Sequence record: OR896839.1
From: Salmonella phage S147_CPL00262
DNA length: 38,265 bases
Strand: one strand, 5' to 3'
Shown here in pieces: positions 1 through 3,001 of the stretch; the stretch's first letter is position 1; each line of letters opens with the position of its first letter. Both the position numbers and the translations under genes were made by a program. Below the pieces are notes generated by a model. The model worked only from the letters and a program-made list of their open reading frames with translations, did no database searches and was not told where the DNA came from.

Positions 1-1764
1 ATGAGCGACACCCAAGCAAACCGTAATGCGCTAATCATCGCGCAGCTTAAGGGTGACTTCGTGGCCTTCCTGTTCGTATTGTGGAAGGCTTTGGCTCTCC
101 CGCCGCCAACTAAGTGTCAGATTGATATGGCCCGGTGTCTGGCTAACGGAGACAACAAGAAGTTTATCCTACAGGCTTTCCGTGGTATCGGTAAGTCATT
201 CATCACCTGTGCGTTCGTTGTGTGGACGCTATGGCGTGACCCTCAGTTGAAGATACTGATTGTCTCTGCATCCAAAGAACGTGCGGACGCTAACTCCATC
301 TTCATCAAGAACATCATTGACCTGCTGCCATTCTTGGCTGAGTTAAAGCCTCGCCCCGGTCAGCGTGACTCTGTGATTAGTTTCGATGTTGGCCCTGCCA
401 AGCCTGACCACTCTCCGTCTGTGAAGTCGGTGGGCATCACTGGTCAGTTGACTGGTAGCCGTGCTGATATCATCATAGCGGATGACGTTGAGATTCCGTC
501 TAACTCCGCAACTCAAGGTGCCCGTGAGAAGCTGTGGACTCTGGTGCAGGAATTTGCTGCGCTTCTGAAACCACTGCCGACTTCTCGCGTTATCTACCTT
601 GGCACGCCTCAAACCGAAATGACCTTGTACAAGGAACTCGAAGATAACCGTGGGTACACCACAATCATCTGGCCTGCGCTCTATCCGCGTAGCCGTGAGG
701 AAGACTTGTACTATGGCGACCGTCTGGCCCCGATGCTCCGCGAAGAGTTCAACGATGGGTTCGAGATGCTCCAAGGTCAACCAACTGACCCCGTGCGCTT
801 CGATATGGAAGACCTGCGTGAGCGTGAGTTGGAATACGGCAAGGCTGGCTTCACTTTGCAGTTCATGCTCAACCCGAACCTGAGTGATGCCGAGAAGTAC
901 CCCTTACGCCTCCGTGACGCTATCGTGTGCGGTCTGGACTTCGAGAAAGCCCCAATGCATTACCAGTGGCTTCCGAACCGTCAGAATCGCAATGAAGAGC
1001 TTCCTAACGTGGGACTTAAGGGTGATGATATTCATAGCTATCATTCGTGCAGCCAGAACACTGGACAGTACCAGCAACGCATCCTCGTGATTGACCCTAG
1101 TGGTCGCGGTAAGGATGAGACTGGTTACGCAGTGTTGTTCACCCTGAATGGCTACATCTATCTGATGGAAGCTGGCGGGTTCCGCGATGGTTATTCCGAT
1201 AAGACCCTTGAGTCCCTCGCTAAGAAAGCGAAGCAGTGGAAGGTTCAGACAGTGGTCTTCGAGAGTAACTTCGGGGATGGTATGTTTGGTAAGGTATTCA
1301 GCCCTGTGCTCCTGAAACACCATGCAGCGCAACTTGAAGAGATTCGTGCTCGTGGTATGAAGGAACTACGCATTTGTGATACGCTGGAGCCTGTACTCTC
1401 TACGCACCGCCTTGTGATTCGTGACGAGGTGATTCGTGAGGACTACCAGACTGCCCGTGACGCTGATGGTAAGCATGACGTTCGCTATTCGCTGTTCTAC
1501 CAGTTGACCCGCATGGCCCGTGAGAAGGGCGCTGTGGCACATGACGACCGACTTGATGCGTTAGCATTGGGTGTAGAGTTCTTACGCTCTACGATGGAAC
1601 TGGACGCCGTGAAGGTGGAAGCTGAGGTGCTTGAGGCGTTCTTAGAGGAACACATGGAGCACCCAATCCATTCGGCTGGTCACGTAGTCACCTCTATGGT
1701 TGACGGTATGGAACTCTATTGGGAGGATGACGATGTGAATAGCAACAGGTTCATTGACTGGTAG
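1..1764 (+). CDS. 19: Terminase large subunit (DNA maturase B), gene 19
   Basis: 587-aa ORF; N-terminus [31 protein letters not shown]... and overall length match T7/T3 gp19 as recalled; SD AAGGAG lies at the very end of the window (38251-38256) immediately upstream when the window is circularised. Confidence 0.95.
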
Positions 1765-1785
1765 TTATGCATATTGAGTGCATAA
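1765..1785 (+). other. Perfect 7-bp stem hairpin (TTATGCA / TGCATAA, 7-nt loop) directly after the gene 19 stop
   Basis: Inverted repeat read directly in the sequence; function unknown. Confidence 0.3.
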
Positions 1786-1845
1786 GGAATCATTGAGACC
1801 ACGGATGGTCACTTTAAGAAACTCCTTAAGAATCAATGAGTTTGA

Positions 1846-1868
1846 ATTAACCCTCACTAAAGGGAGAG
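1846..1868 (+). promoter_or_regulatory. T3-type phage RNA polymerase promoter (phiOR-equivalent)
   Basis: AATTAACCCTCACTAAAGGGAGA exact match to T3 RNAP promoter consensus. Confidence 0.85.
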
Positions 1869-2008
1869 AGGGGACTTAAAGCTACTATACAGGTTAGTCA
1901 TTCAGGTTATGCAATGACCCTTTATGCACTTTAAGTCCACCTCTATGATTGGTGATATTATCATTGTATAATCACCCTACCTTAGAGCAACTGAAAGGAG
2001 GTGGCTCA

Positions 2009-2158
2009 ATGTTACGCTTGCTGATTGCCCTGCTGCGTCATAGAGTCACTTGGCGATTTCTTCTGGTACTTACTGCTGCCCTTGGGTACGCAGGTCTTAC
2101 TGACCACCTCGGTCAACTGGAAGTGGCCTTTTGCTCTATACTCTCTTGTGGGGATTAA
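2009..2158 (+). CDS. 19.5: gp19.5-like small protein
   Basis: 49-aa ORF MLRLLIALLRHRVTWRFLLVL... preceded by SD AAAGGAGG; same length and similar sequence to T7 gp19.5 as recalled. Confidence 0.7.
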   Translation: MLRLLIALLRHRVTWRFLLVLTAALGYAGLTDHLGQLEVAFCSILSCGD

Positions 2159-2240
2159 ATTATTGTTGATGACCGACAAGCGGCTCTGAGGGATTCGTAG
2201 GTATAGTTTCACTACACCAACTCATCCCTGTAGAGTCAAC

Positions 2241-2714
2241 CCTAAAGGTTATACCTAAAGATGCCCTGTAGTTCGTAATGGTCTTACAGGGTCTTCTGGT
2301 GTCTCCTAGCTATCCCTTCGGGATGCGCCTATGGTCTCACCTATGGTGTGGCCTTACCTAAAGTGGTTGCCTAAAGAGACCCTTTAAGAATTTACCACAA
2401 AAATCTGAATGGGTATCTCACAGTTCAAGAACCCAAAGTACCCCCCATAGCCCTCCTAAAGCCACCTAAAGCCAGCCCTACCCCTAGGGTTTAACCTTCG
2501 GTTAACCTTGAGTATCTCCTCAAGTGGCCTATAGGATAGCCTAAAGTGTTGCCTAAAGTCAATACCTAAAGTGGTGGGTGGCTTAAAGAGGCCTTAAAGA
2601 GTGTCCTAGTGTACCAGTTCGATAGTACATCTCTATGTGTCCCTATCTGTTAGCCTCATAAAGTAAACCCTAAAGCCGCCACCTAAAGACCAGACCTAAA
2701 GCCATCACCTAAAG
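2241..2714. repeat. Irregularly spaced CCTAAAG heptamer array typical of T7-group genome ends (concatemer junction region)
   Basis: At least 14 copies of CCTAAAG (plus CTTAAAG variants) between 2241 and 2714; non-coding. Confidence 0.8.
2416..2646 (+). other. Putative mature genome left end and single copy of the terminal repeat
   Basis: TCTCACAGTT... at 2416 resembles the T7/T3 left-end sequence (recalled); no adjacent second copy in the window, consistent with a circularised assembly or concatemer junction; the right boundary is a guess. Confidence 0.35.
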
Positions 2715-2797
2715 AGCAACACTATCTTAAAGACAACCAGACCGATAGACCCACTGTTAACCTGTAGTGATGCCCTGTAGTTCTCTGTAGTCATTTC

Positions 2798-2820
2798 ATT
2801 AACCCTCACTAAAGGGAATA
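2798..2820 (+). promoter_or_regulatory. T3-type phage RNA polymerase promoter (phiOL-equivalent)
   Basis: ATTAACCCTCACTAAAGGGAATA. Confidence 0.75.
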
Positions 2821-2870
2821 AGGGATACTTAAAGGGTAATTAAAGATTTAATAAAAGATTAAATTAATGG

Positions 2871-2900
2871 TTGACTTTAAGTTACCTTTAAGGCTATTAT
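2871..2900 (+). promoter_or_regulatory. Host sigma70 early promoter (A1-equivalent)
   Basis: -35 TTGACT at 2871-2876, 18-bp spacer, -10 TATTAT at 2895-2900. Confidence 0.6.
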
Positions 2901-3001
2901 TCATCACGTCAACGGGACAACGGCCTTAAAGCCACTCCCTGAGATACCGGAGTCAACCGGATAAGTAGACAGCCTGATAAGTCATACGAAAAAAACAGGC
3001 A

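Follow-up and report, generated by a model that had tools for sequence, protein, structure and literature searches.

A conserved hairpin directly after the terminase gene of T3- and T7-type phages and a two-hairpin module upstream of phiOR

A perfect hairpin lies directly behind the terminase gene of a T3-like phage genome, and we found that it is real and under selection, yet weak, non-essential and ordinary in kind. Judging from the aligned sequences, it forms one part of a module of two stem-loops common to T3-, T7-, K11/KP32- and PP81-type Studiervirinae. The initial annotation had recorded a single hairpin; that hairpin exists as described, and what had been overlooked is that it makes up half of a conserved pair. 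Among the possible roles of hairpin 1 we tentatively prefer that of an accessory stem-loop within the 3' UTR of late transcripts. Few genomes in biology have been annotated as thoroughly as those of T7 and T3, yet the element between gene 19 and phiOR is unannotated in the curated T7, phiYeO3-12 and PP81 records. With arms better conserved than the synonymous sites nearby, it stands out as a functional non-coding element, if probably a minor one. A search of the literature found nothing describing a hairpin element between gene 19 and phiOR, and the two-hairpin module of T3/T7/K11-type phages appears to be undescribed.

Genomic context

The window, that is, the whole stretch of DNA analysed, has 38265 bases (38264 in the matching GenBank record OR896841.1) and is the genome of a T3-like Teetrevirus in a permuted record that begins at gene 19. 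Between positions 1500 and 2200 (701 bp queried) it was 100% identical to Klebsiella phage GlastosBack (OR896841.1). Gene 19, which encodes the terminase large subunit, occupies 1..1764 on the + strand as a 587-aa ORF with its stop TAG at 1762-1764; this annotation is found in OR896841.1 (100% identical), T3, T7 and phiYeO3-12. A phiOR-type T3 RNA polymerase promoter (AATTAACCCTCACTAAAGGGAGA) is located at 1847..1869 on the + strand, with its core at 1848, outside the hairpin module, and lines up with phiOR as annotated in phiYeO3-12 and T7. T3-type promoter cores were found at 1848, 2800 and four other places in the window, the one at 2800 being a second, phiOL-like promoter. Gene 19.5 (2009-2158) was located by homology with the records of relatives, and the terminal repeat (~2416-2644) by alignment to the annotated phiYeO3-12 repeat and the T3 right end. 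Dense arrays of short CCTAAAG-like repeats are present on both sides of the terminal repeat (window 2200-2760), as is typical for T3-group genome ends. Since genes and promoters all lie on the + strand, the region from gene 19 to phiOR is transcribed. The curated records of T7, phiYeO3-12 and PP81 carry no annotated element from gene 19 to phiOR.

A 33-aa ORF with a GTG start (1778-1879, + strand) overlaps both hairpins as well as the phiOR promoter, and appears to correspond to a 'hypothetical protein' of GlastosBack and related records. Its frame is lost through indels in T7 and Przondovirus, and it is therefore probably no gene. A mini-ORF starting at the ATG of the left arm was rejected as well: its length is not conserved, ranging from 2 codons in T7 and 4 in PP81 to 9 in the T3-like phages and the Przondoviruses, and in C5 the ATG is missing.

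Anatomy and folding of hairpin 1

Hairpin 1 occupies 1765-1785 and consists of TTATGCA, TATTGAG and TGCATAA, the two arms forming seven Watson-Crick pairs, as originally described. Its first base adjoins the TAG stop and its end lies 62 nt upstream of the T3-type core at 1848, so that its placement directly 3' of the terminase gene and upstream of a phiOR-like promoter also held. The description of the site as near the genome end was loose about distance: given that the repeat maps to ~2416-2644, the hairpin is ~630 bp from the terminal repeat and ~860 bp from the mature right end. On the + strand, the left arm (1765..1771) contains the conserved core TATGCA (1766-1771) and the right arm (1779..1785) the conserved core TGCATA (1779-1784); they are separated by a loop (1772..1778) of constant length, 7 nt, and free sequence. 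The arms are followed by a linker (GGAATCATTGA, 1786..1796, + strand) with a conserved GGA at 1786-1788 and a 'WKCA' element at 1789-1792.

An eighth pair, U.G, is possible and leaves a 5-nt loop. With this pair included, a 25-nt stretch folded as RNA at -7.4 kcal/mol (eight pairs; z -3.75), and the same stretch as DNA folded at -5.0 kcal/mol (z -4.28); in a 41-nt context the z value was just -1.25. Chance alone readily yields perfect 7-bp hairpins with loops of 3-10 nt (6 observed in the whole window vs 19 +/- 5 in mononucleotide shuffles), and the bare pattern is thus not noteworthy by itself. Relative to these shuffles the window is depleted in such hairpins. The palindrome TATGCA-N7-TGCATA is present as a single copy, with no other copy in the window at up to 2 mismatches, which equals the chance expectation. 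From the comparisons given below, it is conservation and not the pattern that raises hairpin 1 above chance.

Scans of the region were negative. The sigma-70 promoter scan gave no call at hairpin 1 and the terminator scan none at 1765-1810, and the Rfam scan of 1500-3000 (E up to 10) returned two chance-level matches elsewhere and no family matching the module. The bases 3' of hairpin 1 are GGAATCATTGAG, with GGAAUCAUUGAG directly after the stem, and thus contain no U-tract. Because the stem is also weak, with two G-C pairs, hairpin 1 is not an intrinsic terminator, in agreement with the initial annotation, which had considered a classical terminator unlikely.

Conservation of the arms

Two alignments were used, one of 12 genomes and the other of 30 distinct sequences, with sequences taken from annotated phage records, from IMG/VR loci found via gp19 and from a search with a DNA pattern anchored on hairpin 2 alone. 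From the end of gene 19 to phiOR, identity with T7, K11/KP32-type Przondoviruses and Pectobacterium phage PP81 was ~70%. The TATGCA and TGCATA arms were near invariant in both alignments and the 7-nt spacer was saturated with substitutions. Across six deep lineages (T3, T7, K11/KP32, PP81 and two metagenomic ones) the arms were 91-94% identical (94% for the left and 91% for the right), compared with 32% for the loop, which is essentially random, and ~60% for in-register synonymous third positions of gene 19. This contrast between arms and loop excludes hitch-hiking or recent transfer; the arms are therefore under purifying selection. The spacer was exactly 7 nt long in 30/30 distinct sequences, and indels occurred instead in the distance from the stop codon to the hairpin and in the downstream linker. 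The position of the element right after the stop of the last late gene was also kept across genera. It had been proposed that the palindrome be looked for in related genomes, and that it be dropped if relatives lacked it and no transcript ends lay nearby; on the side of conservation the outcome was clearly positive in T3-, T7- and K11-type phages, as the arms are conserved in these relatives.

Matches of a covariance model of the module were confined to the clade with ~68% or more gp19 identity, and the model (R1) found no homologue in phages with gp19 identity of 62% or less, including Vibrio ICP3. A metagenome scan anchored on hairpin 2 returned mostly chance matches, together with 5 real copies and no new variant types. 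One Przondovirus contig (L157, IMGVR_UViG_3300045988_000484, minus strand, ~504-560) carries an 11-nt tandem duplication within hairpin 1 (TGCATGGATTG twice), so that a third TGCA core is present at a distance of one helical turn.

Hairpin 2 and the alternative hairpin

Hairpin 2 (GACCA-CGGA-TGGTC, 1797..1810, + strand) lies ~11 nt downstream of hairpin 1 and has a GGA-containing loop. It takes the form GGCC...GGCC in Przondoviruses and AGCAC/GTGCT in PP81, and stems that cannot be aligned with it occupy its place in L026 (CAGAGG/CCTCTG) and L027 (GTTAC/GTAAC). RNAalifold retained hairpin 2 alone, with 2 of its 4 pairs changed on both sides, and dropped hairpin 1. Explicit counts over 30 sequences showed the second pair (54-65) as AU in 15 sequences and GC in 12. 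By these alignments hairpin 2 covaries as predicted for a structured RNA. Besides, the PoeticCupcake version (GGCU/GGUC) pairs solely via two G.U wobbles, and because it needs these wobbles it folds on the + strand RNA and not on its complement.

Hairpin 1 behaved differently in the same 30 sequences. None of its six core pairs showed a compensatory double change (0/6); three pairs were invariant, two had wobble variants, and the central G-C was broken in 6/30 sequences. With compensatory changes absent and the central pair broken, the alignment neither proves nor requires pairing of hairpin 1. The wobble-type changes, all of them adjacent to the loop, were few events, ~2-3 on the + strand vs ~2 on the - strand.

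The linker element can pair with the right arm of hairpin 1, which gives an alternative hairpin in T7, NC-A, PP81 and L104. It is built from the right arm and a downstream ATKCA, for example TGCAT/ATGCA in T7 and TGAAT/ATTCA in NC-A. For C5, L151 and NC-A, in which hairpin 1 is broken, the alternative hairpin was predicted with a probability of 0.5-0.75. Its covariation was not significant, as 88/500 shuffles reached the same level and 17/30 sequences were mismatched. Two further structures were seen in the vicinity. T3-like phages have a third small hairpin, TTTAAG-AAACTC-CTTAAG (window 1813-1830), which is absent from T7 and Przondovirus. A long-range stem of 1746-1757 with 1833-1844, enclosing three hairpins, came from a single-sequence fold (z -1.97); the multiloop was rejected, its columns being not kept in T7 or Przondovirus and not recovered by RNAalifold.

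Natural loss, replacement and HNH insertions

Natural variants replace or delete hairpin 1, and the hairpin is therefore dispensable for viable phage. In two isolated Klebsiella phages, Poynor and PoeticCupcake, whose flanks are ~98% identical to the window, an HNH_3 gene (L164 575-997 and L165 238-660, respectively) is located exactly at the gene 19 stop and replaces everything from hairpin 1 through hairpin 2. These cassettes supply their own GGA-loop hairpin, GGCC-AAGGAA-GGCC in Poynor and GGCU...GGUC in PoeticCupcake. The T7-like contigs L014 and L016 have a clean deletion of hairpin 1 and the linker; a hairpin 2-like stem is kept and is followed by a different HNH_3 gene (L014 1841-2284). 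Przondovirus contigs of the L017 type also have an HNH_3 gene after gene 19 (L017 1807-2241), followed by a modified hairpin 1 (TTATGTCGATTCAGTCGCATAA) that overlaps the stop of the new last ORF, then by hairpin 2 and phiOR. Thus, in the alleles that bear an endonuclease, hairpin 1 is deleted, replaced or altered. At least two different HNH lineages have inserted at the gene 19 stop, in T3-like phages, Przondoviruses and T7-like phages. The gene 19–phiOR junction is a recurrent HNH landing site and tolerates replacement, which is helpful to know when T7-like phages are engineered.

Possible roles of the element

An RNA-level role of hairpin 1 is plausible and, because compensatory substitutions are absent from it, we put it no higher than that. 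Several observations point in this direction: the contrast of the arms with loop and synonymous sites, the kept position after the last late stop (also in the HNH-bearing Przondoviruses), transcription through the region, and the neighbouring hairpin 2, which covaries and, in PoeticCupcake, pairs on the + strand RNA alone. Hairpin 1 itself tolerates U.G (L020, L099, L115) and G.U (L027, L028); it was predicted to form with a probability >0.8 in most lineages (-3.5 to -6.7 kcal/mol), and where it is broken the alternative hairpin takes over. A mild excess of structure was also found in the 60 nt after the terminase stop at 55 non-redundant Autographiviridae loci (mean z -0.64, p = 0.004, vs -0.14 for the coding control). 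In LUZ100, a distant T7-like phage, canonical terminators account for just 5/22 mapped transcript ends (PMC10134795); our literature search found no transcript 3'-end mapping for T3 or T7. On the other hand, the RNAalifold consensus omits hairpin 1, the structure excess has no strand asymmetry, the alternative hairpin lacks significant covariation, and, measured against an exonuclease barrier, the stem is weak and rich in A/U. Also, the change that recurs at the central pair, in four lineages, is C to A and not the wobble-preserving C to U.

In the main rival reading, TATGCA-N7-TGCATA would be a double-stranded DNA palindrome bound by a putative dimeric protein. This protein could be encoded by the phage, for example as a subunit of the terminase or as a replication factor active close to phiOR in its role of secondary origin, or it could belong to the host and be shared by Enterobacterales. 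The C-to-A change of the central pair speaks for this reading. Here the arms are conserved as sequence, the spacing of the inverted half-sites is fixed amid flanking spacers that carry indels, and the TGCA cores are 11 and 10 bp apart, or about one helical turn. The half-site variants are symmetric at the DNA level: TGCATA became TGAATA in the right arm of four lineages (NC-A, PP81, L026, L104), mirrored by TATTCA in the left arm of C5, L108 and L151 (one lineage), and it became CGCATA in the right arm of the phiYeO3-12 group, with TATGCG in the left arm of L027 and L028. However, the site is unique in the genome, as often as chance predicts, and some viable relatives have lost it; a tendency to acquire or retain the alternative hairpin in lineages with a broken hairpin 1 is not what a duplex site would lead one to expect, and hairpin 2 next to it acts as a folded strand and not as a fixed sequence. 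We know of no sequence-specific duplex-binding regulator in the T7 group. As the other tests did not separate the readings, we rank the RNA stem-loop first and the DNA site, which we consider rather doubtful, second. A chance palindrome without function, kept by recent shared ancestry or segment recombination, would fit the dispensability, the absence of covariation in hairpin 1 and the fact that a 7-bp stem is not rare; it is already disfavoured by the alignment, in which the loop is saturated while 12 arm positions are held in the same lineages, and it seems the least credible explanation of all.

Two further explanations were considered. The sequence may matter mainly because free-standing HNH homing endonucleases recognise it or insert there; this would account for HNH_3 genes placed exactly at the gene 19 stop in T3-like phages, Przondoviruses (L017 group) and T7-like phages (L014, L016), and for the altered or lost hairpin 1 of these alleles, as expected for a destroyed target. 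This leaves the conservation of the arms in genomes without the endonuclease unexplained, and homing enzymes exploit sequences that are already conserved for other reasons; we therefore regard it as very improbable. The hairpins could instead cause the phage RNA polymerase to pause or, weakly, to terminate, and so insulate the phiOR promoter/origin by reducing read-through from the late operon. Both lie 35-80 nt upstream of the promoter, a short U-rich run follows hairpin 2 (ACUUUAAG; in T7 AGUUCUUUAAG), and many mapped LUZ100 transcript ends are non-canonical (PMC10134795). Set against this are the missing U-tract of hairpin 1, the weak stems and the absence of a terminator call, as well as the description of T7 with a single phage-polymerase terminator, Tphi (PMC6938266), and such a signal is improbable.

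We infer that RNA rather than DNA is the active form of the element and that its function lies in stability or binding. For the accessory stem-loop in the late transcript, the following sequence of events can be proposed. The phage RNA polymerase would read through gene 19 without meeting a terminator. Once the ribosome has left the stop codon, the downstream RNA could fold into hairpin 1 and the GGA-loop hairpin 2; in some lineages an alternative hairpin that reuses the right arm of hairpin 1 would fold in its place. On the late transcript of the + strand, the module would then be an accessory part of the 3' UTR that tunes the gene 19 message. It could do so by marking a processing site for 3'-to-5' decay or modestly hindering that decay, or else by offering an RNA-binding protein a place to dock. 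A stronger version, in which protein docking or switching is the dedicated task of the module on the T3/T7/K11-type late transcript, is improbable. In one possible variant of it, the GGAs of hairpin 2 and the linker might recruit host CsrA/RsmA, and the exposure of the first GGA would be under the control of hairpin 1 and the alternative hairpin. If such docking took place, the 3' end of the terminase message might be protected or a global host regulator titrated late in infection; for the best-studied phage family this would add a level of post-transcriptional control that has not been described.

Comparison with known systems

Class I (Tphi-type) terminators of T7/T3 RNA polymerase resemble hairpin 1 in that a hairpin directly follows a late gene. 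They differ from it in stability and downstream sequence: hairpin 1 has no U-tract, its stem is not the stable, G+C-rich one of intrinsic terminators (2/7 G-C pairs, ~-7 kcal/mol), and the scan made no call. The class II pause motif for phage RNA polymerase is ATCTGTT, and reading the sequence directly we found it absent from the gene 19–phiOR stretch.

In the T7 group, an RNase III site consists of a long, irregular duplex of ~20 bp that is interrupted by internal loops. The RNase III hairpins of this group (R0.3 to R18.5) are, like hairpin 1, intercistronic stem-loops on phage-polymerase transcripts, and a cleavage of this kind could leave or protect an upstream 3' end. Unlike them, hairpin 1 has a stem of 6-8 pairs, far from a duplex of about two turns, and no Rfam match, and it is not in the mapped set, as none of the ten known RNase III sites of T7 lies after gene 19 (PMC6938266).

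The suggestion of a DNA-level signal near the packaging junction did not hold up for an essential signal. The concatemer-junction signals (pac elements) of T3/T7 are situated from phiOR to the junction; work by Chung and Hinkle from 1990 and by Fujisawa reportedly concerns these T3/T7 pac elements and a hairpin intermediate next to the terminal repeat. Like them, hairpin 1 lies in non-coding DNA of the right end, after gene 19 and before the terminal repeat. In contrast, it is upstream of phiOR and ends at 1785, ~630 bp before the repeat rather than at or next to it, and viable phages do without it in cis (HNH replacement in Poynor and PoeticCupcake, deletion in L014/L016). Because it is both dispensable and distant from the repeat, an essential packaging signal is unlikely.

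Like palindromic operators of dimeric DNA-binding proteins, hairpin 1 is an inverted repeat of 6-bp half-sites (TATGCA-N7-TGCATA) with a fixed 7-bp spacer and symmetric variants; unlike them it is a single copy without a known cognate protein, and it is not placed over the promoter, ending 62 nt upstream of phiOR.

The last comparison concerns hairpin 2. CsrA/RsmA sites have GGA in a loop of ~6 nt whose stem does not exceed 4 bp, a second site is found at a distance of 10-63 nt, and the SELEX consensus is RUACARGGAUGU (PMC7652899). The ACA of the consensus is unmatched here, there is no nearby Shine-Dalgarno sequence to repress, and GGA-loop hairpins are not enriched genome-wide (3 observed vs 3.6 +/- 1.9 expected); a literature search found no paper linking CsrA to T7-group transcripts. 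The architecture nevertheless corresponds: hairpin 2, and not hairpin 1, can be written as GACC-ACGGAU-GGUC, a 4-5-bp stem with GGA (1803-1805) in its loop, and the linker GGA (1786-1788) lies 17 nt upstream of it, within the 10-63-nt bridging range. We take this apparent fit of hairpin 2 and the linker GGA to CsrA/RsmA hairpins as a lead only.
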